Of a stretch of 64,000 nt of DNA, positions 1 through 58,644 are shown piece by piece. The position numbers and the translations under genes are program-made. This DNA is from Candidatus Margulisiibacteriota bacterium (GTDB lineage Bacteria; Margulisbacteria; WOR-1; O2-12-FULL-45-9). The first letter of the stretch is position 1. The number at the start of each line of letters is the position of its first letter. Location: contig JBAZZP010000003.1 of assembly GCA_041658745.1 (NCBI GenBank), positions 83,423-147,422 of the forward strand, given 5' to 3'. Under the pieces are notes generated by a model. The model ran no database searches and was not told where the DNA came from. It worked only from the letters and a program-made list of their open reading frames with translations.

Positions 1-142
1 AAACAATCATCCCACAAAAGATAAACTGCAAATCTTGCTCAGAGAAATCAAACCTTTGGCTGGAAAAATAAAAAGAAAATACTAGTAGTCCAAGAACAAC
101 AAAAGCATTAAAAGCGGCAAATAATTTATAGGGTATTTTCAT
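1..142 (-). CDS. hypothetical protein, N-terminal fragment (continues past left edge)
   Basis: ATG at 142-140 overlaps the stop of the upstream ORF (TAATG). The frame stays open to position 1. Translation MKIPYKLFAAFNAFVVLGLLVFSFYF.. has a hydrophobic N-terminal helix. Confidence 0.3.
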   Translation of the reverse strand, partial: MKIPYKLFAAFNAFVVLGLLVFSFYFSSQRFDFSEQDLQFIFCGMIV

Positions 143-921
143 TATGGGATCCAAGGCACCTCCACGGTAATAACGGCTCCCGTACTAGCATTAATTTCGC
201 AGCGGGCAAACTCAGATTGAGCATTATAATCAAAAATAATTTGCCATATAGCATCACCGCCTAGCGTTAATGGGGAACTTAACCGAAAAACATCAAGAAA
301 CGGTTCAGTCTTTCCACTTTCCCAGCTAGCAACCAGTGGAATATTCCTAAAAATGGCAATTGCTTGCGTGCTGTCGATCGGCCAAGTTTCTAAGCTATTG
401 GAAAACGAAGGATAAAAATTAATATAAAGTTCATTTAATTTTGCAGAGTCTGTTTCGGGATATCGATAAGCGCCTCCGTCCACTCTAATTACCTCAAAAG
501 TTACTCCATCACTATAACAAAAATCCCAGTTTTCCGCAGTGGACACGACCGTTCCGCTTCCATGTTGCTCAGAAAGCCAGGCTTTTACTCCTACCAAGTG
601 ATATCCATCTGGGACAAGCCCCCAAGGTTCGCCCATTATATAACACCATCTTAGTCCGCCTACGGCAATAGTGGAAGTAGTCATCCCAGTTGTGGTGCTC
701 GTACTAGTTGTACTCGTCGAGGTCGAAGTTGTGCTCGTTGTGGTTGAAGTGGTTGTCTCGGTTGTTGTGGAAGTGCTGGAAGTGGAGGTTTCAGTTGAGG
801 TTGTAGCTGTGCTGGTTGTAGTAGTAGAAGTAGTAGCTCCGCAACCCATCCCAAACAAAACCAACAGAATAAAAAGGAACCCAAACGAACTAAAAAAAAC
901 TAAACCATTGTTTTTATACAT
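142..921 (-). CDS. putative lipoprotein with Thr/Ser-rich linker and C-terminal domain of unknown function
   Basis: 259-aa ORF. Signal peptide ends in a lipobox-like LFGMGC. A ~55-residue T/S run is encoded at about 671-840. No catalytic motif recognised. Confidence 0.6.
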   Translation of the reverse strand: MYKNNGLVFFSSFGFLFILLVLFGMGCGATTSTTTTSTATTSTETSTSSTSTTTETTTSTTTSTTSTSTSTTSTSTTTGMTTSTIAVGGLRWCYIMGEPWGLVPDGYHLVGVKAWLSEQHGSGTVVSTAENWDFCYSDGVTFEVIRVDGGAYRYPETDSAKLNELYINFYPSFSNSLETWPIDSTQAIAIFRNIPLVASWESGKTEPFLDVFRLSSPLTLGGDAIWQIIFDYNAQSEFARCEINASTGAVITVEVPWIP

Positions 922-933
922 CTTTTATTTCCT

Positions 934-2115
934 TCAGCTGAATAGATTTTTTAAAAGCTGGCTTCCTCGCACAATCTTCAACTTCGCCTTCCTCGCCTCT
1001 TTCTCATTATACCCCTGAATGCCTTTCCTTGCCATTCCTTGCCCTCCCTTGCCATCATAAATTACGAAAGGCACATCGTCCGCCGTATGTGTCATGTATT
1101 TGATCGGGGTTGGATGATCAGGAAGAACGAGTATCCGGGTATCCGGGGATCCGGGGATCAGGGAATGGTTTAATATATTCCCCACAACATATTTATCAAA
1201 ATCCTCAATCGCTTTAATTTTATGTTTAATATTGCCTTCATGACCGGCTTCGTCGGGCGCTTCAACGTGAACAAAGACAACATCGTGCTTTTTTAGTGCT
1301 CTCAGAGCAGCCTTTGCTTTCCCCACATAATTAGTATCTAAATAGCCGGTTGCTCCTGGGACTTTGATGACTTCAAGTCCAATAATTTTGCCAATTCCTT
1401 TTAGCAAGCCAACAGCAGTTATAATTGCTCCGCTTTTCCCAAATTGTTTTTTAAAAGTCGGCATCGTTGGCGCAGTTCCCTGCCCCCACAACCAAATCAT
1501 GTTAGCTTTTGACTTTAAATCATGCAGAATAACTTCGCCTTCGTTCATCAAGCGCAAAATAGCTTCAGACCCCTTCCCTTTCGGTAAATAATCGTGGATG
1601 CATTGGCCGGTGATGTCATGAGGTGGGGTAGTACCAACATTTGACATTTGACATTTGTCATTTGTCATTATCGTCATGATATGGCGATAGCTAACTCCAG
1701 TGTAAAAGCAAACATCTTTGCTTCCCAACTTCGCATTGAGTTGACGAATTATTTTGTCCGCTTCCTTGGTAGAAATGTGTCCAGCCGTGAAATCTTTCAT
1801 CTTGCCGTCTTTAACGGTCACCAGGTTGCAGCGGAAGGCTAATTCATTGTTCCGCAGTTTAATTCCCAGACTAGCAGCTTCGAGTGGTCCTCTACCCGAA
1901 TAATACTTTTTGGGATCGTAACCAAAAATGCTCATAGCAGCAACGTCAGATCCGGGCGGCATTTTGGGCGGAACGTTATTGGTCCAACCAACAAGGCCAT
2001 TGCGGGCCATAAAATCCAAGTTGGGGGTTTTGGCAACTTCAAGGGGAGTTTTCCCTCCCAAAGCTTTGAGTGGCAGATCGGACATTCCATCGCCGATGAG
2101 AACTAAATACTTCAT
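934..2115 (-). CDS. apgM: cofactor-independent phosphoglycerate mutase, archaeal type
   Basis: 393 aa. N-terminus MKYLVLIGDGMSDLP..GGKTPLEVAKTPNLDFMA, plus PPHD and VLPDHPTP..HTADDVPF motifs typical of ApgM. Confidence 0.85.
   Translation of the reverse strand: MKYLVLIGDGMSDLPLKALGGKTPLEVAKTPNLDFMARNGLVGWTNNVPPKMPPGSDVAAMSIFGYDPKKYYSGRGPLEAASLGIKLRNNELAFRCNLVTVKDGKMKDFTAGHISTKEADKIIRQLNAKLGSKDVCFYTGVSYRHIMTIMTNDKCQMSNVGTTPPHDITGQCIHDYLPKGKGSEAILRLMNEGEVILHDLKSKANMIWLWGQGTAPTMPTFKKQFGKSGAIITAVGLLKGIGKIIGLEVIKVPGATGYLDTNYVGKAKAALRALKKHDVVFVHVEAPDEAGHEGNIKHKIKAIEDFDKYVVGNILNHSLIPGSPDTRILVLPDHPTPIKYMTHTADDVPFVIYDGKGGQGMARKGIQGYNEKEARKAKLKIVRGSQLLKNLFS
1021..1056. repeat. decamer array GCCNTTCCTT (3.6 units) inside apgM
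   Basis: Reads gcctttcctt gccattcctt gccctccctt gccatc. It encodes ..DGKGGQGMARKG.. and belongs to the same family as 47901-47946. Confidence 0.8.
1133..1164. repeat. 4 x octamer array ATCCGGGN inside apgM
   Basis: Reads atccgggt atccgggg atccgggg atcaggga. On the coding strand it encodes ..SLIPGSPDTRIL.. Confidence 0.8.
1641..1677. repeat. heptamer array TTGNCAT x4 plus TATCGTCAT inside apgM
   Basis: Reads ttgacat ttgacat ttgtcat ttgtcat tatcgtcat. It encodes ..MTIMTNDKCQMSN.. Confidence 0.8.
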
Positions 2116-5141: not shown

Positions 5142-5207
5142 TTTCGACACCATTCCTCGTAATTTACCCGCAAATAGCTTGGCAATAACATTGCTGGGTT
5201 GCTAAGC

Positions 5208-6209
5208 ATGCATTCATATCGCGAAACGCCCGCTCTATTAGATGAGATTATTGCACAGGCAATTTCCCAAAATGCATCTGATATCCATTTAGAGCCGCAC
5301 GAGAATCATCTTAAAGTGCGTTATCGAGTGGACGGGCTTCTGCAAGAAGGAGCCTCTGTTCCCAAGATAAAACAAGCATCGCTTACTTCCCGCCTTAAAG
5401 TGATGGTTAACCTCGATATCGCCGAAAGCCGACAACCGCAAGACGGAAGAACCAATCTGCAAATTAACAAAACAGCCTTTGATGTTCGGGTATCCACCAT
5501 TCCAACGATACATGGCGAAAAAGTAGTTATGCGACTGCTCAACCGCCAGCATGCCGCCCTGAAAATTGACGAGTTAGGGATGGAAAAAGAGGATTTAATA
5601 AAATATGAGAGGATGTTAAAGAAAAGAAGCGGAATAATTTTGGTAACTGGCCCAACGGGATCAGGCAAAACGACCACCCTCTACGCCACACTGTCCTATC
5701 TAAATTCGAAAGAGATAAACATCACGACCATTGAAGATCCGGTAGAATACCAATTGACAGGAATCAACCAAATTCAAATTAATCCAAAGGCAGGATTAAC
5801 TTTTGCTCGCGGGTTGCGCTCTATTTTGCGCCAAGATCCTGACGTTATCATGGTTGGTGAAATTCGCGATTTGGAAACGGCCAAGATCGCCCTACAAGCA
5901 GCGCTAACTGGGCATTTAGTCTTTTCAACCCTGCATACCAATGATGCGACATCAACCATTTGTCGTCTAATCGACATAGGGATCGAAAAATATTTAATCG
6001 AGTCAACCATTGTTGGAGTAATTGCGCAAAGACTAGTGCGCAAGAGAACTAGTGAGGGATATAAGGGACGCATTGGAATCTACGAAGTAATGGAAGGCAT
6101 CCAATCAAACACTGACATGTCTTCTCTTGCACAGAACGGAGAATTAAAAGTAGCACAGGGAATAACCACTAAAGAAGAATTAGCTCGCGTGCTTTATCTC
6201 GAACATTAA
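5208..6209 (+). CDS. compact GspE/PilB-family type II/IV secretion ATPase (core only)
   Basis: Motifs SDIHLEP..LKVRYRVDGLL, Walker A GPTGSGKTT, Asp box and His box TGHLVFSTLHTND. It lacks the N-terminal domains and the C-terminal tetracysteine motif. Confidence 0.8.
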   Translation: MHSYRETPALLDEIIAQAISQNASDIHLEPHENHLKVRYRVDGLLQEGASVPKIKQASLTSRLKVMVNLDIAESRQPQDGRTNLQINKTAFDVRVSTIPTIHGEKVVMRLLNRQHAALKIDELGMEKEDLIKYERMLKKRSGIILVTGPTGSGKTTTLYATLSYLNSKEINITTIEDPVEYQLTGINQIQINPKAGLTFARGLRSILRQDPDVIMVGEIRDLETAKIALQAALTGHLVFSTLHTNDATSTICRLIDIGIEKYLIESTIVGVIAQRLVRKRTSEGYKGRIGIYEVMEGIQSNTDMSSLAQNGELKVAQGITTKEELARVLYLEH

Positions 6210-6553
6210 CCACCACCGCCACCACCACCGCCGCCTCCGCCACCGGCCCCACCTCCAGCCCCTGCTCCTCCACCAGCTCCAGCTCCACCACTAGAACCAA
6301 CTCCTGGTCCTCCTCCCATATGCGCAAGAAGCGAAATAGCCAAAGCTTTGACATGTTGAAACAGGTTTTTCATGACATTGGTTTCTTGCAAAATTTGAAC
6401 CCGTGGGCATCTTTCGCAGAATTTAAACTCGGCCTTTAGCGGATTACAGGCAGCTTCTGGATAATAAATGCACTTTTTAAACCCTTCTTTTCTACGCTTC
6501 ATTTCTTTAGGGCTAATCAGCTTATTTGCCTCATCAATCTTATTTATTTCCAT
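6206..6553 (-). CDS. small Cys4 protein with hydrophobic helix and C-terminal Gly/Ala tail ending in G12
   Basis: 115-aa ORF. Cys pattern is C-x7-C-x9-C-x2-C, followed by NVMKNLFQHVKALAISLLAHM and then GGGPGVGSSGGAGAGGGAGAGGGAGGGGGGGGGGGG. Mixed GGT/GGC/GGA codons are used. Confidence 0.5.
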   Translation of the reverse strand: MEINKIDEANKLISPKEMKRRKEGFKKCIYYPEAACNPLKAEFKFCERCPRVQILQETNVMKNLFQHVKALAISLLAHMGGGPGVGSSGGAGAGGGAGAGGGAGGGGGGGGGGGG

Positions 6554-11768: not shown

Positions 11769-12671
11769 ATGCAAACCATTATCCTTTTAGGTCCTACTGC
11801 CGTTGGAAAATCAAAAGCGGCCGTTGAGCTCGCCCTTCAAATCAACGGCGAGATAATTTCCGCCGATTCGATGCAAGTCTATCGCGGCATGGATATTGGG
11901 ACCGCCAAACCGACCAAAGAAGAACAAAAAGGCATTCCCCACCACCTAATTGATATTCGCAACCCTGAAGAAAGCTGGACAGTCTCTGATTTTGTCGAAC
12001 AATCCAACCATCTAACCATCCAACTCTCCTCAAAAGGCAAAACGCCAATCATTGTGGGAGGCACGGGACTCTATTTATGGACCCTAATTAATGGCTATAA
12101 CTTTGCCGGAATTAAATCGGATGAAGCCATCCGGAAACGATTAGAGGAGCTTCCTCCCTCTACGCTCTATGCTCAACTTTCTACGGTCGATCCCCTTTCT
12201 GCCCAAAAAATCCATCCCCACAACAAAAAAAGAGTTATGCGGGCATTGGAAGTGTTTGAATTAACCGGGGAACCGATTTCGAAGCAGCAAGAAAAATTGG
12301 CAAACGGCAAACAGCTAACAGCAACCATTATCGGATTAACTCTGCCTCGCAACCAACTTTACGAACACATCGAACAGCGAATAGAAAATATGATAAAAGC
12401 GGGACTAATTGATGAAGTCAAAGGACTTCTAGACAAGGGATATTCGAAAGGGCTTACTTCTATGCAAGCCCTGGGATATAAAGAAGTGGTTGAATTTTTA
12501 GAGGGACGATGGGATCGAGAAAAATTGATCTATGAGCTCAAAAAACGCACTCGCCACTTTGCCCGCCGGCAAATGACCTGGTTTAGACGCTTCAGAAACG
12601 TTCAATGGATCGATGCAACCCCTGAAAATTTGAATAATCTGGCAAAGTTTGCTAGAATAGAGGAATGGTAA
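11769..12671 (+). CDS. miaA: tRNA dimethylallyltransferase
   Basis: Motifs LLGPTAVGKS, ISADSMQVYRGMDIGTAKPT and RRQMTWFR. Confidence 0.92.
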   Translation: MQTIILLGPTAVGKSKAAVELALQINGEIISADSMQVYRGMDIGTAKPTKEEQKGIPHHLIDIRNPEESWTVSDFVEQSNHLTIQLSSKGKTPIIVGGTGLYLWTLINGYNFAGIKSDEAIRKRLEELPPSTLYAQLSTVDPLSAQKIHPHNKKRVMRALEVFELTGEPISKQQEKLANGKQLTATIIGLTLPRNQLYEHIEQRIENMIKAGLIDEVKGLLDKGYSKGLTSMQALGYKEVVEFLEGRWDREKLIYELKKRTRHFARRQMTWFRRFRNVQWIDATPENLNNLAKFARIEEW

Positions 12672-22804: not shown

Positions 22805-23269
22805 TTAAAAAGGTATTTCGTCAATTTCTTTACTCTCGTCCCCTTCAATGGCCATTACGGGCCCTTTCTTCCCTTCCTCTCCCTCATGGGCCTTCACGGG
22901 CCCTTTGTCCCCCTCTTCTCTTTTTCCCAACATTTGGATATTATCCGCGATAACTTCGACCATGCTTCTTTTTTCGCCATCTCGTCCCACAAAATTACTG
23001 ACCTGCAGCCGGCCTTCTACCGCCACCGGTCGGCCTTTTTTAAGGTATTCGCCCACAATTTCGGCGGTTCTTCTCCATGCAACAATATTTATAAAATCCA
23101 CATCCTGGTTGGCAGATGAAGAATCATGCCCCGTAGCTTCTTGGGATTCTTCCTTGCGTTTAAACCGGTTTACCGCAACCGTAAAACGACAGACAGGAAT
23201 CCCCGAAGTGGTATAGCGAAGCTCCGGATCCCTCGTTAAATTCCCAATTATAAAAACTTTATTATACAT
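22805..23269 (-). CDS. ssb: single-stranded DNA-binding protein (paralogue 2, with internal 13-aa tandem duplication)
   Basis: OB fold MYNKVFIIGNLTRDPELRYT..CRFTVAVNR..FINIVAWR, with the acidic tip DEIPF. Confidence 0.85.
   Translation of the reverse strand: MYNKVFIIGNLTRDPELRYTTSGIPVCRFTVAVNRFKRKEESQEATGHDSSSANQDVDFINIVAWRRTAEIVGEYLKKGRPVAVEGRLQVSNFVGRDGEKRSMVEVIADNIQMLGKREEGDKGPVKAHEGEEGKKGPVMAIEGDESKEIDEIPF
22841..22918. repeat. 2 x 39-nt tandem duplication inside ssb paralogue 2
   Basis: It encodes EEGDKGPVKAHEG / EEGKKGPVMAIEG. An exact 14-mer, ccctcatgggcctt (22881-22894), recurs intergenically at 23298-23311. Confidence 0.7.
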
Positions 23270-35525: not shown

Positions 35526-37154
35526 ATGCAGCCAGAGCCAACCATTAAAATCCTCACCGAAGAACTAATCAACAAAATCGCTGCCGGAGAAGTGGTTGAG
35601 AGACCAGCCGCTGCGGTTAAAGAATTGGTTGAGAACTCGATTGACGCCGGCGCATCCAAAGTAAGCGTTGAAATTCAAGCAGCTGGCAGTAAACTAATCC
35701 GCGTTGCCGATAACGGCCGGGGAATGAGCCAAGAAGATTTAACTCTTGCGGTCCAACGCCATGCCACTTCCAAAATTAGCACCTTGGAAGACTTATTTAA
35801 CATTCAAACCCTGGGCTTTCGCGGAGAAGCGCTCTCCTCCATTGCCGCGGTTTCAAAATTTGATATCGAACAAAATCCTTCAGGACAAGGCGTTACCGTT
35901 ACGGCCAAAGACTTATTTTACAACACTCCCGCCCGCAAAAAGTTTTTAAAATCACCCTCGACCGAAATGGGACACATTGGCGACGTAGTTTCCAAATACG
36001 CCATGGCCTACCCAGAAATTGCCTTTGAATTAATTGTGGATGGAAAACCCCTCTTGCAATCCCCTGGATCAGGAAAACTAAAAGATGCCGTCTTGTCGGT
36101 TTACGGCTTAGAACTAGTTAAAGACTTGATTGCAATCGAAGGTAAAATTAACAACATTAAGGTCTCGGGCCTCATTAGTTTGCCCACTCTAACCCGGGTG
36201 GATAAAAATTATGAGAATTTTTTTGTCAACCGTCGTTTTGTAAAAAACTTCTTACTCAACCGGGCACTTGAAGACGCTTATCGTACTTTAATTCCCAATA
36301 ATCGTTATCCTGCAGCTATTGTCTTTATCGATGTCGATCCCAAACAAATCGATGTTAACGTCCACCCCACTAAACGCGAAATAAAGTTTGCCAATAATCA
36401 GGCCGTAATGGAAGCTGTTCGCACGGTTGTTCAGCAAGCCTTAGGCAACAAAACTCCCATACTCCATACTCCAAACTCCAATCTCCATACTCATTCCCAC
36501 TGGGATCCTCCGTGCCAGAAATGGGAACCAAGCATGGCTGACGTTCTCTTTCCGGTAGAGTGTGCGACTGGTGAAAATCTTCCTTTAAGGCCTGTTAGCA
36601 CTTACAAAGATACCTACATTATTACCACTGATGGAGAAGACCTGGTAATGATCGATCAGCACGCGGCTCACGAACGAGTGTTATACGACCGGCTCACAGC
36701 TCACAGCTCACAGCAAGCCCACGTTGAACAACAAACTTTGTTATTGCCCGAAAATATTGAGTTGGATACAAAAAGTTATTCAACAACCAAGGCAAATTTA
36801 GATTTACTGCGTGAGCTAGGCTTTGATTTGGAAGAGTTTGGCGGAAATGCCTTAATTTTACGCGCTGTTCCATCAATCTCGTCCAAGCTTAACCCTAAAC
36901 AACTCTTACTAGATATCGTGGCCGAATTAGACAATCTCGGCAAAAGCGTTCAAACCGAAACCAAACAAGAAAATATCCGCAAATTAATCGCTTGCCATAG
37001 TGCAGTCAAAGCAGGGGATAAATTATCCGCTCTCGAAATTAACCAACTGATCAAAGACCTTTATGCAACCCAAAACCCCATGACCTGCCCACACGGTCGA
37101 CCAATCATGTTTCGGATGACCGAAAACGAAATTAAAAAGAAATTTGCCCGCTAG
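35526..37154 (+). CDS. mutL: DNA mismatch repair protein MutL
   Basis: Motifs INKIAAGEVVERPAAAVKELVENSIDAG, DNGRGM, GFRGEAL, and C-terminal DQHAAHER and CPHGRP. Confidence 0.92.
   Translation: MQPEPTIKILTEELINKIAAGEVVERPAAAVKELVENSIDAGASKVSVEIQAAGSKLIRVADNGRGMSQEDLTLAVQRHATSKISTLEDLFNIQTLGFRGEALSSIAAVSKFDIEQNPSGQGVTVTAKDLFYNTPARKKFLKSPSTEMGHIGDVVSKYAMAYPEIAFELIVDGKPLLQSPGSGKLKDAVLSVYGLELVKDLIAIEGKINNIKVSGLISLPTLTRVDKNYENFFVNRRFVKNFLLNRALEDAYRTLIPNNRYPAAIVFIDVDPKQIDVNVHPTKREIKFANNQAVMEAVRTVVQQALGNKTPILHTPNSNLHTHSHWDPPCQKWEPSMADVLFPVECATGENLPLRPVSTYKDTYIITTDGEDLVMIDQHAAHERVLYDRLTAHSSQQAHVEQQTLLLPENIELDTKSYSTTKANLDLLRELGFDLEEFGGNALILRAVPSISSKLNPKQLLLDIVAELDNLGKSVQTETKQENIRKLIACHSAVKAGDKLSALEINQLIKDLYATQNPMTCPHGRPIMFRMTENEIKKKFAR
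36453..36500. repeat. degenerate heptamer array (ACTCCAN x6) in the mutL linker
   Basis: Reads actcccat actccat actccaa actccaa tctccat actcatt, encoding ..TPILHTPNSNLHTHSH.. Confidence 0.75.
36692..36712. repeat. perfect (GCTCACA)x3 tandem heptamer in the mutL C-terminal domain
   Basis: Reads gctcaca gctcaca gctcaca. The 21 nt stay in frame and encode LTAHSSQ. Confidence 0.9.
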
Positions 37155-37253: not shown

Positions 37254-37448
37254 ATTGAATATCTGGTGATCAGGAAATCTGGGAAGGGAGATCGGGGAAT
37301 CAGGATATCTGGATAGGGAAATCAAGACAGTAGAAAATTATAGATTTGAATAATTATTATGAAAATACGGTCTTAAAGGTTTATTTCCCCCTAATTTCCA
37401 GATGCCCGGATTCCCCTTTCCTGATTCCCCGATCCCCAGATACCCAAT
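37254..37448. repeat. 195-bp imperfect inverted repeat built from ATCNGGRN octamer arrays (MITE-like or cruciform-prone element)
   Basis: The left arm 37254-37322 and the reverse complement of the right arm 37383-37448 both read attgRRt-atctggNg-atcNggRa-..-agggRR-..-gggaaat. A 60-nt AT-rich spacer separates them. Confidence 0.7.
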
Positions 37449-47631: not shown

Positions 47632-48486
47632 TTATACCAGCTTCAAATTTATATCCAGTGCCTTAGAGGAATGCGTTAGCTCGCCAATCGAAATAAAATC
47701 CACGCCAGTAGCGGCAATTTTCGCAACTGTTTTTAAATTTACTCCGCCAGACGCTTCGGTTTTTATCCCAGCCTCTTTGCATAATTTAACCGCTTGCCTT
47801 AGAGTTTTAATCTCCATATTATCTAAAAGTATCCTCCCAGCCCCCACTTCAATTGCTTCTTTGACTTCCCCTATTGTCTTTGCTTCAATTTCCGCCCTAA
47901 GCCCTCTCCATCTTCCCTTGCCCTTCCTTGCCTTTCCTTGCCCCTCAACTGCTTCAATCGCTTCTTTCACGCCTCCCGCCAAAGCAATGTGATTATCTTT
48001 AATTAACACAGCATCGTAAAGCCCCATCCGATGGTTAGTTCCGCCACCACACTTGACCGCGTACTTTTCCAAGGAACGTAATCCTGGGATCGTTTTTCGA
48101 GTATCTAGCACTTTGACCATCGACAATGGACCCTGGACTTTTGCAACGAATTTTGCCGTCAGCGTAGAAACCCCAGAAAGATGTTGCAGAAAATTTAACG
48201 CTACGCGCTCGCCCGTTAGTATCCCGCGAGCTGGCCCAGACAGTTCAGCTAAAATTGTCCCCGCCTTAACTAATTGGCCATCTCGGCATTTTGGAATAAA
48301 TTTAATTCTACAATCGATCTGCCGAAAAACCTCACGGGCAATGTCTATCCCCGCAATAACTCCGGCTTCTTTAGCGCGAATAACCGCTTTGGCAATTTTA
48401 TCTCTTGCCACAATCGCATTGGTCGTGATATCTCCCGTGCCAACGTCTTCTTTTAGCGCCGCTTTAATTATTTCAATATAACCCAT
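47632..48486 (-). CDS. nadC: nicotinate-nucleotide pyrophosphorylase (carboxylating)
   Basis: Motifs DVGTGDITT, LDTRKTIPGLR, GGG.NHR.GLYDAVLIKDNH and LLDNM. Confidence 0.9.
   Translation of the reverse strand: MGYIEIIKAALKEDVGTGDITTNAIVARDKIAKAVIRAKEAGVIAGIDIAREVFRQIDCRIKFIPKCRDGQLVKAGTILAELSGPARGILTGERVALNFLQHLSGVSTLTAKFVAKVQGPLSMVKVLDTRKTIPGLRSLEKYAVKCGGGTNHRMGLYDAVLIKDNHIALAGGVKEAIEAVEGQGKARKGKGRWRGLRAEIEAKTIGEVKEAIEVGAGRILLDNMEIKTLRQAVKLCKEAGIKTEASGGVNLKTVAKIAATGVDFISIGELTHSSKALDINLKLV
47901..47946. repeat. decamer array GCCYTTCCTT (about 4.5 units) inside nadC
   Basis: Reads gccctctcca tcttccctt gcccttcctt gcctttcctt gcccctc. It encodes ..EGQGKARKGKGRWRG.. and belongs to the same family as 1021-1056. 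Confidence 0.75.
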
Positions 48487-49274
48487 ACTAGATAATAGTA
48501 GACGATCGGTGCAGCCAAAATAAAGCTGTCCATCCGATCCAACATCCCTCCGTGTCCTGGAACTAATTGGGAAGAATCCTTAACTCCAGCATCCCGCTTA
48601 ATTAAAGACTCCACCAAATCACTGAACTGGGCCACGATGCCAATAATTGCCCCTAAGATCAAAGAATGTACCATTTCAAACCCAGCGTAATAACCAAACA
48701 CTCCTGCCGCAATAATACAAAAAACAAAACCGGCAGCGGCCCCCTCAATGCTTTTCTTAGGAGAAACCGAAGGCCAAAGCTTATGTCGGCCAAACTTTTT
48801 TCCCACAAAATAGGCAATGGTATCTAGCGCCCAAATCGTTACCATCATAAACAATAAATAACCACCACGTTCGGTTAGCGCTCGAATGTATAAAAAATAA
48901 CTAAAAAACCACCCAATATAAATCATGCCTAGCAAAGTTACCGCAATATCGACAATTGCTTCCTTGGGTCGTTGTTTTAAAAAGAGAGTGGCAATCATCG
49001 TTGCCAAAGCTGCTCCCGTAAAAATGGCCGATTGAGCAGGTTCCCAGTTTTTCTTTAGAGCAAGATATGCGAAAACAATAAAAAAGATGGTAAAAAAATT
49101 ACCCACCCAATAGGCCGGGTGAAAATCTTTATTGCGCATCATATTGTAAAATTCATTGATAGCAATAATGGCTAGAAAAAGCACCATGGCCAAAAAGGGA
49201 ATCCCGCCCCAATAGACACACAAGACCAAAAGAGGGACAGAGATTAAAGCCGTAATAATTCTAAGCCACATCAC
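48468..49274 (-). CDS. cdsA: phosphatidate cytidylyltransferase
   Basis: 268 aa, multi-TM, with C-terminal motif SLIKRDAGVKDSSQLVPGHGGMLDRMDS. Confidence 0.9.
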   Translation of the reverse strand: MMWLRIITALISVPLLVLCVYWGGIPFLAMVLFLAIIAINEFYNMMRNKDFHPAYWVGNFFTIFFIVFAYLALKKNWEPAQSAIFTGAALATMIATLFLKQRPKEAIVDIAVTLLGMIYIGWFFSYFLYIRALTERGGYLLFMMVTIWALDTIAYFVGKKFGRHKLWPSVSPKKSIEGAAAGFVFCIIAAGVFGYYAGFEMVHSLILGAIIGIVAQFSDLVESLIKRDAGVKDSSQLVPGHGGMLDRMDSFILAAPIVYYYLVWVILK

Positions 49275-49980
49275 TCACCTGCTCTTTAGTTTTACCAAAT
49301 TTGCGTGTACGTTTCTGAAAATCTTCGATGGCAGCAATTAGTTGTTCCCGGCGAAAATCGGGCCAATAAGTAGGAGTCACATAAATTTCGGCATAGGCTA
49401 TTTGCCATAACAGAAAATTGGACACTCGCATCTCATTAGCAGTACGAATCAGCAGGTCAGGGTCAGGCATGTTTTTTGTGTATAGATATTGGGAAATTGT
49501 TTCCTCGTTTATTTCGTCATTTTTTAATTCGTCATTCGTCATTCGTTTACATGCATCTACTAGTTCGGCTCGCCCCCCATAATTAACCATTACATTTAAA
49601 GTGATGCGAGAATTGTTTTTGGTGGTTTCCATTGAGTTCTTCATTCTTTGTTGCAAGGCCAAAGAAAATTGTTCGAGCCGACCTAAGAAGTTAAGCTTAA
49701 CACTATTGGCCATCAAATCATCGATTTCACTATCAATGGTTTGCATAAAAAGATCCATTAAAAAATCAACTTCTTCTTGTGGTCTCCTCCAATTTTCGGT
49801 AGAAAAAGCATAGACGGTTAAATATTTTACGCCAAACTCAGCACAAGCCTTGAGGATTGCTCGAACAGATTCTGCTCCTTCTTTGTGGCCAGCAATGCGC
49901 GGCAGACCCTTTGCCTGCGCCCAACGCCCGTTCCCATCCATGATAATTGCAATGTGTTGAGGAATGTTATTGCGATCCAT
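49261..49980 (-). CDS. uppS: di-trans,poly-cis-undecaprenyl-diphosphate synthase
   Basis: Motifs HIAIIMDGNGRWA, AFSTENW.RP and RVSNFLLWQIAYAE. Confidence 0.92.
   Translation of the reverse strand: MDRNNIPQHIAIIMDGNGRWAQAKGLPRIAGHKEGAESVRAILKACAEFGVKYLTVYAFSTENWRRPQEEVDFLMDLFMQTIDSEIDDLMANSVKLNFLGRLEQFSLALQQRMKNSMETTKNNSRITLNVMVNYGGRAELVDACKRMTNDELKNDEINEETISQYLYTKNMPDPDLLIRTANEMRVSNFLLWQIAYAEIYVTPTYWPDFRREQLIAAIEDFQKRTRKFGKTKEQVSDVA
49513..49548. repeat. heptamer repeats TTCGTCA (1 + 3 tandem) inside uppS
   Basis: Reads ttcgtca(49513-19) .. ttcgtca ttcgtca ttcgttt(49528-48). It encodes KRMTNDELKNDEI. Confidence 0.75.
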
Positions 49981-49995
49981 TTGCCCATCCTAAAA

Positions 49996-50550
49996 CTAAA
50001 CCTCGAGAATTTCTTTTTCCTTAGAATGTAATATTTTGTCAATGTCGGCAGAATATTTGTCGGTTAGTTCCTGGACTTTTTTGTCCTGGGTTTTTTCTTC
50101 ATCCTCGGTGATTTGTTTTTCGTTTTTCTTTTTTTTGAGAGCTTCCACTGCTTCGCGACGAATATTACGCAACGCTACCTTGCTTTCTTCCGATTCCTTT
50201 TTAACCGTTTTTACGAGTTCTTTGCGCCGTTCCTCGGAAGGGGAAGGGAGGGAAAGGCGAATAACGTTAGCATCTCTCCGCGGATTAAGTCCCAAATCAG
50301 ACGACATCAAGGCCCTTTCAATATCGGCAGAAGCATTTTTATCGAACGGGGTGATCACCAAACTGCGTGGCTCTGGAGCGGAAACCTGGGCAATTTGTTT
50401 TAGAGGCACATCCGACCCATAATATGAAACCTTAATGTGATCAAGCAAGGAGGGATTGGCGCGACCAGTCCTAACCCCCGACAGGTTCTTCTTTAATGCT
50501 TCCAGTGCTTTTTGCATTTTAATTTCGCTTTCTTTAATTACATCTTGCAT
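49996..50550 (-). CDS. frr: ribosome recycling factor
   Basis: 184 aa. Motifs VRTGRANPSLLD, LGLNP and EERRKELVK. Confidence 0.93.
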   Translation of the reverse strand: MQDVIKESEIKMQKALEALKKNLSGVRTGRANPSLLDHIKVSYYGSDVPLKQIAQVSAPEPRSLVITPFDKNASADIERALMSSDLGLNPRRDANVIRLSLPSPSEERRKELVKTVKKESEESKVALRNIRREAVEALKKKKNEKQITEDEEKTQDKKVQELTDKYSADIDKILHSKEKEILEV

Positions 50551-52427: not shown

Positions 52428-54254
52428 GTGCCTCTCGAAACCACCCATTATCCTAAAGAATATGATGTAATCGTCATTGGCGCTGGGCATGCAGGAATTG
52501 AAGCTGCCTTGGCGGCAGCTCGCATGGGTTGTCAGACCTTACTCTTAACTATCAACCTTGATACGATTGCTTTTATGGCCTGTAATCCCGCCGTGGGGGG
52601 GCCGGCAAAAAGCCAATTAGTACGCGAAGTTGACGCTTTAGGCGGACAAATGGGAGTATCGACCGATTTAACTTTCTTGCAGATGAAAATGCTCAACACC
52701 ACCAAAGGCCCAGCGGTTCAAGCTTTGAGAGCCCAGTCTGACCGCAATTCCTATCACGTCACTATGAAACAGGTCCTCGAAGAACAAACCAATCTTGATC
52801 TAAAACAAGGGATTGTCGAAGAACTTCTTTCCGACTCACGCCCCCATACGCCCACCGATTCACCCGACGCAACCACCACCGCTAGACGCATTACGGGAGT
52901 CCGCACAAATCTCAACATGGTTTACTCAAGCAAAACCGTTGTGGTAACAACAGGAACGTTCCTCAATGGCATCGTTCACGTTGGAATGACCCACATGGAA
53001 GCCGGCCGAGCAGGAGAATTGCCCGCTAAAGGTATGTCTGAAAGTTTGGTAGCACTGGGATTAGAACTTGGAAGATTAAAAACCGGGACTCCAGCCCGAT
53101 TAAATAAACGCTCGATCGATTTTTCTAAAATGATCCCGCAGCCTGGCGACGAACCACCAAAAATGTTTTCATTTGTCTGGGAATATCAACAATACGGGTT
53201 ATCGGGGAATCCGATGATCGGGGGATCTGGGACAAATCAAATTCCTTGTCATTTAACCTGGACTACTCCTCAAACTCACGCAATTATCCGAGCAAATCTT
53301 GATCGTTCACCGTTATTTCAGGGGAAAATTAAAGGAACGGGGCCTCGCTATTGTCCGTCGATTGAAGATAAAGTTGTTCGCTTCCCTGAAAAAGATCGAC
53401 ATCAATGTTTCATTGAACCGTGCGGGAGAGACACGCTGGAAATGTACGCCCAAGGCATGAGCACCAGCCTTCCCGCCGATGTACAACTAGAAATGCTAAG
53501 AACTATGCCAGGGCTTGAAAATGTAGAAATGCTGCGGCCGGGATACGCCGTTGAGTATGATTACGTCAAGCCCTCTCAACTCTTGCCCACCTTAGAAACC
53601 AAACAGATTACTGGGTTGTTTTGTGCTGGACAAATTAACGGGACTTCGGGCTACGAAGAAGCGGCCGCGCAAGGAATTGTAGCGGGGATAAACGCCGCAC
53701 TTAAAGTTAAAGAGAAAGAGCCGCTCGTGCTGGGGAGAGAAAACTCATATATTGGAACTTTAATTGACGACCTAATCACCAAAGATATTGACGAGCCTTA
53801 TCGCATGTTAACTTCACGCTCCGAATATCGCTTGCTTCTGCGACAAGATAATGCCGACCTGCGGTTGACAGAAAAAGGTTATCAGGTTGGTTTAATTTCT
53901 AAAGAACGTTTTTCTAGTTTTCAGAAAAAGAAAGCGGCAGTTGAATCTGAAACAGTTATTTCCCCGGAAACAGAAGAACAAATCGCCATAACCAAAAAAT
54001 ATGCAGGCTATATAATGCGCCAATTGCAACAAATCGAGCGTTTTAAAAAACTGGAACACAAAAAATTGCCCTCGGATTTTGATTACTCGGAACTACGAGG
54101 ATTATCTAATGAGGCTCGAATTAAACTGGCCAAAATTCAACCCCTTTCCATCGGACAAGCCACCAGAATTGCGGGAGTTTCTCCAGCCGACATTTCTGTT
54201 TTGCTAATTCACCTTGAAACCCGTGGACGCTCAAAAGAATCTATGCTAAAATAA
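52428..54254 (+). CDS. mnmG: tRNA uridine 5-carboxymethylaminomethyl modification enzyme MnmG/GidA
   Basis: Motifs [35 protein letters not shown] and [16 protein letters not shown]. The start codon is non-ATG (GTG). Confidence 0.92.
53201..53232. repeat. 4 x octamer array ATCNGRNN inside mnmG
   Basis: Reads atcgggga atccgatg atcggggg atctggga. It encodes ..[12 protein letters not shown].. and belongs to the same family as 1133-1164 and the arms of 37254-37448. Confidence 0.75.
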
Positions 54255-57576: not shown

Positions 57577-58644
57577 ATGGAAGAATCTTTATTGCGCCCA
57601 CTGGTGAAAGAGATAAAAGACTACGTGCCTGGAAAAAACACTACCGAACCCGGCATGATCAAATTGGCGTCCAACGAAAATCCCTTTGGCCCTTCCCCTA
57701 AAGCCCTAGAGGCTATCGCCAAAGAAGCCTCGAAGTTACATGTTTATCCTGACCAAAAAGCTGTCCTGCTTCGAGACTCCCTTTCAAAAACTTTGGGAAT
57801 TGAAAGCGAAAAGATAATTGTTGGCAACGGCTCCGATGAAATCATGCAAATAGCAATTGCAACCTGCCTCAAGCCCGGCGAGGAAGTAATTATTTCTAGC
57901 AACACCTTTAGTGTTTATGAGTTTGTTACTCGCTTATTTGACGGCTTCCCGGTTTTTGTCCCACTTAATAATTACGAACAAGACTTGGACTCAATTCTCA
58001 AGGCAATTTCTCCTAAGACAAAGGCCATTTTTCTGTGCAACCCCCACAATCCGACCGGGACATATATCATCAATCAAAAACTAAACGCTTTTTTAACCAG
58101 TGTTCCAGACAATATTTTAGTGGTTGTCGACGAAGCCTATGCCGAGTTTGCAGAAGCAGCGGATTTTCCTTCTTCCCTAGAGCAAACCAAAAAGCATGGA
58201 CATGTTTTAATTTTGCGAACCTTTTCCAAATATTATGGTTTAGCCGGGTTACGAGTTGGCTACGGGGTTGCTTGTCCAGAATTGATTCACTATATGTTCC
58301 GTACCAAGTTGCCCTTTAATGTTGGCCGACTAGCTCAAGTTGGAGCCACTGCTGCCTTAGAGGATAAAGAATTCTTGGCTAAAACATTTCAAAACAATAG
58401 CTTAGGAAAAAAATATTTGTACGCCGAGCTAGATAAATTGGGATTGGACTACAAAAAAACTGAATCTAATTTTATTTTTATAAACATCAAAAAGTCGGCC
58501 GACGAAATGTTTATGGAATTAATGCGGGCGGGAATAATCATTCGCCCCCTTACTTCTTTTGGTTTGCCAGAAGCCATTCGGGTTTCAATTGGAACCCCGG
58601 AACAGAACGAAAAGCTAGTTTTTGCTTTCTCGCAAGCCTTTTGA
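57577..58644 (+). CDS. hisC: histidinol-phosphate aminotransferase
   Basis: Motifs KLASNENPFGPSP, NPHNPTG, DEAYAEF and RTFSKYYGLAGLRVGY. Confidence 0.92.
   Translation: MEESLLRPLVKEIKDYVPGKNTTEPGMIKLASNENPFGPSPKALEAIAKEASKLHVYPDQKAVLLRDSLSKTLGIESEKIIVGNGSDEIMQIAIATCLKPGEEVIISSNTFSVYEFVTRLFDGFPVFVPLNNYEQDLDSILKAISPKTKAIFLCNPHNPTGTYIINQKLNAFLTSVPDNILVVVDEAYAEFAEAADFPSSLEQTKKHGHVLILRTFSKYYGLAGLRVGYGVACPELIHYMFRTKLPFNVGRLAQVGATAALEDKEFLAKTFQNNSLGKKYLYAELDKLGLDYKKTESNFIFINIKKSADEMFMELMRAGIIIRPLTSFGLPEAIRVSIGTPEQNEKLVFAFSQAF

Follow-up and report, generated by a model that had tools for sequence, protein, structure and literature searches.

A tandem decamer encodes an expanded NadC loop in a Margulisbacteria genome, one case of 7-10-base coding repeats at variable loops of housekeeping proteins

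Introduction

How does a tandem array of ten-base units come to lie inside, and in frame with, the coding sequence of a core metabolic enzyme? The question is raised by nadC, the gene for quinolinate phosphoribosyltransferase (QPRTase), in a stretch of 64,000 nucleotides from Candidatus Margulisiibacteriota bacterium (contig JBAZZP010000003.1, positions 83,423 to 147,422), the whole of which is referred to here as the window. A preliminary description of this DNA proposed that the array represents an insertion, in a loop, into an otherwise intact gene. In this work we find that the NadC loop is one case of a lineage-wide pattern in which repeats of 7-10 bases encode variable loops of housekeeping proteins. 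The explanation that we favour, with moderate confidence, is that a short purine-rich micro-repeat, present at this loop since the ancestor, underwent an in-frame and lineage-specific expansion by slippage or template switching, an expansion that was probably neutral in its effect. A longer NadC loop is of minor interest by itself; its cause deserves more attention, and is examined here through the orthologous sites of related genomes, the frequency of similar arrays in window and control sequences, and the arrays found in other genes. In most placements Margulisbacteria and Saganbacteria, the lineages in which these arrays were found, are sister to the Cyanobacteria.

An expanded, repeat-encoded loop in an intact nadC gene

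As had been supposed from the sequence, nadC is intact and its product looks functional, judging from profile matches and a predicted structure. On the TIGR00078 equivalog hidden Markov model for NadC the protein reaches 305.1 bits, where the cut-off is 198.4, with a match that extends over profile positions 2-268 of 269, and a search for homologues in the PDB returned a best E-value of 2e-71. The AlphaFold2 (AF2) model (predicted local distance difference test, pLDDT, 90.2; predicted template modelling score, pTM, 0.86) displays the two-domain fold of the family, an N-terminal alpha/beta sandwich and an open alpha/beta barrel, and matches in Foldseek the T. thermophilus QPRTase 1x1o with a template modelling (TM) score of 0.92 and a root-mean-square deviation of 1.8, and 1qpr with a TM score of 0.91. 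An alignment of 58 sequences has 68 invariant columns, all of them intact in the window protein, whose residue they include by construction; among the invariant positions (window numbering) are R130, K131, N151, H152, R153, K163, D164, N165, E199, E201, D222 and N223. The arginine and lysine of TRKT, together with NHR, KDNH, ExE and DN, are the substrate- and phosphoribosyl pyrophosphate-binding and catalytic residues of QPRTases. The identical protein is recorded in four sources and is the one member of its 90% identity cluster, the closest relatives found being 75-78% identical.

The segment of interest lies between ..AIEAV and AEIEAK.., where the 17 residues EGQGKARKGKGRWRGLR are found exactly as first reported, at amino acids (aa) 181-197 (window 47896-47946 on the codon map). 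According to DSSP assignments on the AF2 model, codons 181-198 correspond to the end of helix 173-186 and to loop 187-197, with strand 198-202 next, so that the extra residues are predicted to fall on a helix end and a helix-to-strand loop. The strand that follows directly, AEIEA, bears the invariant E199 and E201. Block pLDDT drops to 61 for aa 181-190 and 66 for aa 191-200, versus about 90 for the whole model, and the loop is strongly basic, with 7 lysines or arginines in 16 residues. Helix-to-strand loops of (beta/alpha) barrels face away from the catalytic strand ends, and it is because the nadC site is such a loop that it would tolerate expansion.

Comparisons with solved structures and with homologues agree that this loop is longer than usual. 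HMMER alignments to the QPRTases 1x1o, 3paj and 5hup leave 8-9 window residues without a partner, and the Vibrio enzyme 3paj has 8 residues, KQLNPGKP, at the loop, for which the preliminary description gives about 8 in E. coli. Across 120 close homologues the GGV..EAK segment that contains the loop ranges from 20 to 34 residues with a mode of 25 (58/120), and the 33 residues of the window therefore exceed the mode by 8; the segment measures 22 residues in three of the nearest relatives (P0002, P0003 and P0017) and 23 in a fourth (P0006), giving the window 11 more than the nearest relatives. Loops of comparable length are not common among homologues lacking the repeat: only 15/120 have segments of at least 30 residues, and P0049, the only long-loop homologue whose DNA was read, is also encoded by a decamer array. 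In a neighbour-joining (NJ) tree built with both nadC array sites (the second is described below) masked, the window protein nests among these same four short-loop relatives, and more distant outgroups mostly have 24-25 residues. Because of this nesting, the extra 10-11 codons are derived on the window branch; the added length is thus, on the evidence of the tree, derived and not ancestral, as had been proposed, and the expansion is apparently recent.

The DNA of the loop carries an imperfect array of about 3-4 units on the coding strand, each comprising a GGCAAGG core and a 3-nt spacer AAR (GGCAAGGAAR). The two central units are near-perfect, corresponding to perfect GCCYTTCCTT matches on the plus strand at 47920-29 and 47930-39, and are flanked by degenerate copies at 47910-19 and 47940-49. 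Tandem Repeats Finder (TRF) detects the array both in the window (47916-47943, period 10, 2.8 copies, 88% matches, score 49) and in nadC alone (nt 545-575, 3.1 copies, consensus GGCAAGGAAA). The claim that the extra residues coincide exactly with the array holds only approximately: the array spans about codons 181-193, and codons 194-198 (AGA GGG CTT AGG GCG) lie outside the TRF-defined array, in a degenerate G-rich tail where periodicity, as read from the sequence, is lost and which supplies the remainder of the 33 nt gained relative to the nearest relatives.

Arrays at orthologous nadC sites in related genomes

Examination of nadC DNA from eight relatives (loci L001-L003 and L147-L151) revealed a non-triplet tandem array at the same loop in four of seven orthologues read. 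The units are GGCAAGG x4.0 in P0004, GGGTCAA x3.3 in P0006 and GGGGCAA x4 in P0008, while P0049, which has the longest loop in the set, carries the decamer AGAAGGCCTC x3.7; the GGCAAGG core of the window array is common to the P0004 and P0008 arrays. Another orthologue, P0017, has a single copy of GGGCAAGGGAAG, encoding GQGK, which is identical to the window's third unit; in the window this unit is read in another frame, giving KGKG(R). The idea of a repeat inserted into non-repetitive ancestral sequence is therefore contradicted: because relatives hold arrays or the GGCAAGG core at the loop, the feature is better described as in-situ expansion and rewriting of an older micro-repeat. As a possible path, and by inference only, two decamers (20 nt) may have been added upstream of the unit shared with P0017 and 13 nt downstream, for a total of 33 nt and with a short frame-shifted stretch between, a reconstruction made at 66% protein identity.

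A second site within nadC shows the same behaviour. Here, in the window, degenerate heptamers lie at the junction of long helix 86-117 and strand 125-128, and a heptamer array is present at this position (aa 113-127) in all 8 genes read, namely the window and its seven orthologues. Units in the orthologues include CGTATTA, GGGTCAA, GGGTCGC, TCAAAAG, GAGTCAC and GGTGCCA, and mean unit identity is higher within an array (0.66) than between orthologues at the same positions (0.47). The periodicity is also apparent at the protein level: in 120 homologues, residues that match 7 aa apart number 246, versus 49-121 for offsets of 5, 6, 8, 9 and 10, and the two copies co-vary (SRV..SRV, SKV..SKV, LRV..LRV). 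Both results are signs that the arrays evolve in concert. This count was limited to the second site because a dipeptide count over the whole protein is confounded by universally conserved positions.

A further array was observed in the nadC of P0004, where the octamer AAGATGGA x3.5 seems to have arisen around the conserved R-D-G codons at aa 67-76 (L003 729-756) with length unchanged. Flanking codons have come to resemble the repeat unit, one copy bearing five substitutions, which suggests templated conversion rather than simple insertion.

Enrichment of non-triplet arrays

Taken alone, the nadC array is marginal against chance. A non-triplet array with a TRF score of at least 48 occurs in 19/200 dinucleotide shuffles of the window, or about 10% of shuffled 64-kb sequences, and the decamer motif itself is not enriched, with 16 matches in the window versus 14.2 expected. 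As a member of a class, however, the array is far beyond chance. The window holds six arrays with scores of at least 48 versus 0.095 per shuffle (200 shuffles), and eight with scores of at least 36 and at least 2.5 copies versus 0.33. Within nadC, non-triplet arrays number 15 in 6,750 nt of eight clade genes and 5 in 64,533 nt of 80 control genes, an excess of about 29-fold; the controls are from other lineages and encode NadCs of 46-54% identity among the metagenome-contig matches listed. Arrays per 100 kb amount to 12-29 in the window and three long clade loci versus 3.0 in control loci, and strict four-unit heptamer arrays to 9 in 114 kb of Margulis-clade loci versus 2 in 681 kb of controls (about 27-fold).

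The arrays of the clade are uniform in size, at about 3.5-5 units or 28-35 nt. Most of those listed lie inside open reading frames (ORFs), which by tiling make up about 96% of the window, and arrays at orthologous sites recur in independent assemblies from NCBI, JGI, ENA and Logan.

Arrays in other housekeeping genes

Comparable arrays were identified in five further genes of the window (Table 1). The gene for cofactor-independent phosphoglycerate mutase, apgM, contains three in-frame arrays with units of 10, 8 and 7 nt, and at all three sites the units differ by orthologue with length nearly constant. At the decamer site, the window and P0122 differ in length by exactly 30 nt, and the window array is only 2 residues above the modal length there, GQG-type loops being common at this site; at the octamer site, orthologues carry the heptamer arrays GARCACA and GAAATCA/GAATGWC. 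At heptamer sites, length classes differing by +7 aa were seen; like the difference of 30 nt, such steps preserve the frame. A perfect AATGACR array would be expected to contain an in-frame TGA, but this codon is TGT in all three orthologues (window, L145 and L146), from which the alternation of AATGACA and AATGTCA results and which shows that selection filters these arrays. At position 7 of the AATGACR unit, two genomes have A in every copy and a third has mostly G, a sign of concerted change.

In uppS, five genomes share a site that is occupied by an array of about 5 heptamers, the units (AATGACG, CGACCAR, AGAAAGT and CGCGGGT) being specific to the lineage. The miaA orthologue in L146 has AAAAAACY x4 (1082-1112) at the site corresponding to the window's octamer array; a weaker heptamer array, GCAAACR, lies downstream in window miaA at 12300-12324. 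Two heptamer arrays fall within mutL itself, and because the window holds a full-length mutL, loss of mismatch repair is unlikely as a simple cause of the arrays; moreover, MutS is not known to correct loops of 7-10 nt. The unit AAGGCCCRTG of the ssb tail recurs, together with its peptide, in the apgM loop of P0122 and P0123.

Table 1. Coordinates of the repeat arrays and of the features that contain them (window positions unless a locus is named)
Feature	Position	Strand	Context or basis
nadC, quinolinate phosphoribosyltransferase (carboxylating nicotinate-nucleotide diphosphorylase)	47632..48486	minus	ORF, 284 aa, intact
Expanded helix-to-strand loop of NadC, codons 181-198, EGQGKARKGKGRWRGLRA	47893..47946	minus	codon map, DSSP/pLDDT, length comparisons
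Decamer array in nadC, coding strand GTTGAGGGGC AAGGAAAGGC AAGGAAGGGC AAGGGAAGAT	47910..47949	minus	TRF and pattern matches
Degenerate G-rich tail GGAGAGGGCTTAGGGCG, encodes (W)RGLRA	47893..47909	minus	codon alignments with P0002, P0003, P0004, P0006, P0008, P0017
Second nadC array site, degenerate heptamers GTCCAGG GTCCATT GTCGATG GTCAAAG	48111..48138	minus	aa 117-126
Decamer array GGCAAGG + GAG/AAT/AAA, encodes GKGGQGMARKG	1020..1055	minus	apgM (934-2115)
Octamer array CCCCGGAT x3.9	1133..1163	minus	apgM
Heptamer array AATGACA/AATGTCA x4.7	1637..1669	minus	apgM
Heptamer array AATGACG, about 5 units	49510..49546	minus	uppS (49261-49980); TRF 49527-49546
uppS orthologue arrays	L001 87-117; L002 1222-1255; L148 7999-8035; L150 uppS		
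Octamer array AACCATCY x3.4	11998..12024	plus	miaA (11769-12671)
Heptamer array CCATACT x5	36457-36492		mutL (35526-37154), linker between N- and C-terminal domains
Heptamer array GCTCACA x3.3	36692-36714		mutL, inside C-terminal domain
Decamer-like repeat GGCCCGTGAAGGCCCATGA, encodes GPVKAHEG	22884-22902		ssb (22805-23269), SSB C-terminal tail

Origin of the arrays

The pattern itself, namely the enrichment of the arrays, their orthologous positions, the turnover of their units and the derived length of the nadC loop, is shown by the data above; the molecular process and its neutrality are inferred. Under the expansion that we favour, short non-triplet arrays would be generated, and re-homogenised, when DNA undergoing replication or repair suffers slipped-strand mispairing or a template switch. 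In nadC, 10-nt units with the GGCAAGG core and 3 further nucleotides would have been added, with a net gain of 33 nt relative to the nearest relatives. Selection would then pass only those products that keep the frame, that have no stop codon in whichever of the three frames a unit is read and whose residues suit a loop (G, K, R, Q and A), and because only compatible products pass, arrays would accumulate at structurally permissive loops. The outcome in NadC would be a flexible and strongly basic loop, probably without a function of its own, and the wider setting an ongoing process across Margulisbacteria and Saganbacteria that re-homogenises arrays of about 28-35 nt with units of 7, 8 and 10 nt.

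Several observations weigh against this account. The closest relatives found are sufficiently distant, at 75-78% identity, that the mutational steps cannot be reconstructed, and the gain of 33 nt cannot be divided evenly into decamers. Because a single 10-nt slippage would shift the frame of nadC, a multi-unit or compensated event must be assumed. One decamer unit is found in two unrelated genes, nadC and apgM, which local slippage alone does not predict unless the unit is a favoured 'attractor'. Arrays that are homogeneous and stand at conserved positions among orthologues of about 60-80% identity could also point to selection at the DNA or RNA level. Finally, the permissiveness of the loop is a prediction, made from its low pLDDT, its helix-loop-strand secondary structure and the general topology of such barrels.

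The best of the alternatives, which we nonetheless regard as unlikely, is selection for a function of the arrays. The basic Gly/Lys/Arg loop may serve the protein, for instance through contacts with a partner or nucleic acid, or the repeat itself may have a role in DNA or RNA such as a G-quadruplex (G4), a heptamer bound by a protein or a translation pause where one structural element gives way to the next, in which case the position and periodicity of an array would be conserved while its units drift. Sites and periods are indeed kept across many orthologues with homogeneity within arrays, the size of the arrays (about 3.5-5 units or 28-35 nt) is strikingly uniform, and a preference for four units is reported for published heptamer G4 repeats (PMC4692102). 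Some arrays are canonical G4 motifs in a scan for potential quadruplex sequences (PQS), for example the apgM octamer at 1137-1163, and the GGGTCAA and GGGTCGC arrays show, by eye, four G3 tracts with 4-nt loops. In the nadC array, ViennaRNA with G4 energies predicts a weak quadruplex (-9.1 versus -7.0 kcal/mol, a gain of about 2 kcal/mol). Against a function, the PQS scan found no canonical G4 (four G3+ tracts with loops of 1-7 nt) at nadC, where a quadruplex requires a 10-nt loop. No stable RNA fold was found at the array, where the mRNA is less structured than shuffles (z=+1.9), and an Rfam search gave no family match at this position. More generally, because the units that different genomes have at a given site bear no relation to each other (CGTATTA, TCAAAAG and GGGTCGC), no shared motif, G4 or binding site is possible, and the encoded peptides are wholly different between orthologues and modelled with low pLDDT.

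It is improbable that a tiny mobile or dispersed repeat was involved, whereby a ready-made block of about 30 nt composed of GGCAAGGNNN units was inserted into nadC and apgM, in resemblance to the small dispersed repeats that reportedly occur in Nostoc. The architecture of GGCAAGG plus a 3-nt spacer in these two unrelated genes would be accounted for, as would the recurrence of unit families across loci and genomes (AATGACR in apgM and uppS; AAGGCCCRTG in P0122 apgM and the window's ssb). Against this, the GGCAAGG core is already present at the nadC site in P0004, P0008 and P0017, and GQG-type loops at the apgM site, and for this reason the decamer unit looks ancestral in both genes. Neither terminal inverted repeats nor target duplications were seen in the window sequence, and the apgM array adds just 2 residues over the mode. 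Two tandem decamers, GCCNTTCCTTGCCNTTCCTT, gave 59 scattered matches in unrelated phyla among 185,579 reference genomes, where about 17 are expected by estimate; no Margulisbacteria are among the 59, the source genome being evidently outside that collection, since the two matches of the window itself did not appear. With two arrays of the decamer in 64 kb, and the core motif held at the relatives' sites, the repeat does not resemble a miniature mobile element.

Even less probable is that the long NadC loop is ancestral and was lost by deletion in close relatives. Loop length is labile in the family, from 20 to 34 residues with 15/120 homologues at 30 or more, but the nesting of the window among four lineages with 22-23 residues would require several independent deletions, and the near-perfect central units point to recent duplication. 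Chance similarity or an assembly artefact is very improbable, since, despite the frequency with which shuffled windows match the score of the nadC array and the lack of enrichment of the decamer motif, six arrays of that score stand against an expectation of 0.095, orthologous-site arrays recur in independent assemblies from four databases, and the array is in frame, shorter than a sequencing read and encoded in a protein recorded identically in four sources.

Returning to in-situ expansion, we advance more tentatively, as a possibility that we hold with less than even confidence, its generalisation to Margulisbacteria and Saganbacteria. An ongoing process specific to these lineages may write arrays at fixed permissive loops of NadC, ApgM, UppS, MiaA, MutL and SSB, such that the loops would evolve by concerted turnover of DNA and not by point substitution, with multi-unit or compensated events keeping the frame. 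The clade keeps non-triplet microsatellites within coding regions, in variable loops of essential enzymes, at shared positions and with units that change together. If general, this would constitute a different bacterial mode of protein-loop evolution, through concerted turnover at the DNA level with compensated frame changes, and would offer both a trait marking the lineage and a hint that polymerases or repair act unusually in these sister phyla of Cyanobacteria; if true, it would imply either distinctive replication or repair in that sister group or a new function at the level of nucleic acid. Repeat-encoded loops of this kind will mislead alignment, estimates of the ratio of nonsynonymous to synonymous substitution (dN/dS) and phylogenetic markers based on indels; they also lend themselves naturally to loop engineering.

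Comparison with known repeat systems

Long simple sequence repeats (SSRs) with units of 5-11 nt have been described in prokaryotes, with heptamers dominant, in certain lineages only, and slippage has been proposed as their origin (Mrazek, Guo & Shah 2007, as cited in PMC4679880 and PMC4692102). As summarised in the second of these sources, they are sporadic, mostly intergenic or regulatory, and generally suppressed in coding regions (PMC4692102, citing Lin & Kussell 2012). The arrays described here are alike in their non-triplet tandem units, in the dominance of heptamers and in a lineage-restricted over-representation, but differ in lying in frame within essential housekeeping genes, at orthologous loops, with a uniform size of 28-35 nt and concerted unit turnover. 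Judged as a long SSR, the nadC array alone has 2.8-3.1 copies and a score of 48-49, of the kind found in 19/200 shuffles, and it is as a class that the arrays qualify, with the six in the window versus 0.095 expected and the 29-fold excess in clade nadC.

Cyanobacteria possess heptamer families of their own, including STRR and the GGGGA(C/T)T/GGGNATC quadruplex repeats (Rehm et al. 2015, PMC4692102), and TAACTGA repeats are heptamers of Beggiatoaceae and Cyanobacteria (PMC4679880). Each of these families has one fixed unit and is mainly intergenic, near start or stop codons; under-representation on coding strands is reported (PMC4692102). The arrays of the present clade share with these the tandem heptamers and the frequent count of about 4 units, and those of CCCCGGAT x4 and GGGTCAA x4 are of quadruplex type, but the fixed unit of a family is replaced here by many lineage-specific units that are translated. 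The nadC unit, the decamer GGCAAGGAAR, and the unrelated units of the other arrays place them outside the STRR and GGGNATC families.

Phase-variable contingency loci, such as surface and restriction genes of pathogens, likewise contain slippage-prone tandem repeats in or beside genes. Their tracts are long, perfect and frame-switching, whereas the nadC array is short and imperfect (about 3 units), and lies mid-gene and in frame in a core enzyme; it is not a locus of this type. A further parallel is the cryptic simplicity that Tautz, Trick and Dover are said to have described in 1986, in which slippage generates low-complexity insertions, chiefly in eukaryotic genes and the expansion segments of rRNA. 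Both phenomena involve slippage-like reshaping of unconstrained coding stretches into hypervariable protein segments of variable length; we found no documented case of cryptic simplicity in a bacterial housekeeping enzyme that involves non-triplet units at a conserved site. A search of the literature, in a library that is incomplete, gave no description of translated non-triplet arrays at conserved loops of such enzymes, nor any account of repeats in Margulisbacteria. Relative to the canonical QPRTases (1x1o, 1qpr and 3paj), the window enzyme has the same fold (TM 0.86-0.92) and the same conserved catalytic motifs, and differs in the loop before the E-x-E strand, which is 8-9 residues longer and strongly basic.

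Other repeats in the window

Among the few arrays lying outside ORFs is a C-rich repeat of about 22 nt, CCAGATGCCCGGATTCCCC.., in the intergenic region between mutL and the next ORF (37395-37437), which is related to the apgM octamer CCCCGGAT. Canonical G4 motifs (G3+N1-7 x4) in the window are confined to 1137-1163 (plus strand) and 57682-57706 (minus strand), the former being the octamer array of apgM, on the antisense strand of that gene. Two TRF matches in frr (50115-50134 and 50239-50257, scores 31-33) were set apart from the phenomenon as probable chance or low complexity, because the protein is conserved there across orthologues, a caution that some of the repeats listed may lie outside it; arrays in glycosyltransferase genes were compared for orthologous positions, and the sites do not correspond.

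The ORF at 142-921 (minus strand) has no Pfam match; its product has a hydrophobic segment at the N terminus and, after this, a long Thr/Ser-rich tract, whose repeats at 706-836 have units of 21-24 nt and 3 nt, that is, multiples of the triplet, unlike the other arrays. A CCA/CCG-rich repeat with periods of 3, 9, 12, 18 and 30 covers 6209-6291, at the junction of ORFs 5199-6209 and 6206-6553, and would yield a Gly- or Pro-rich product according to strand. In mnmG (52428-54254), at about aa 130-160, the window and L148 share a 13-residue insertion relative to L150, the coding sequence of which consists of degenerate units of about 8 nt, CACGCCCC CATACGCC CACCGATT CACCCGAC.

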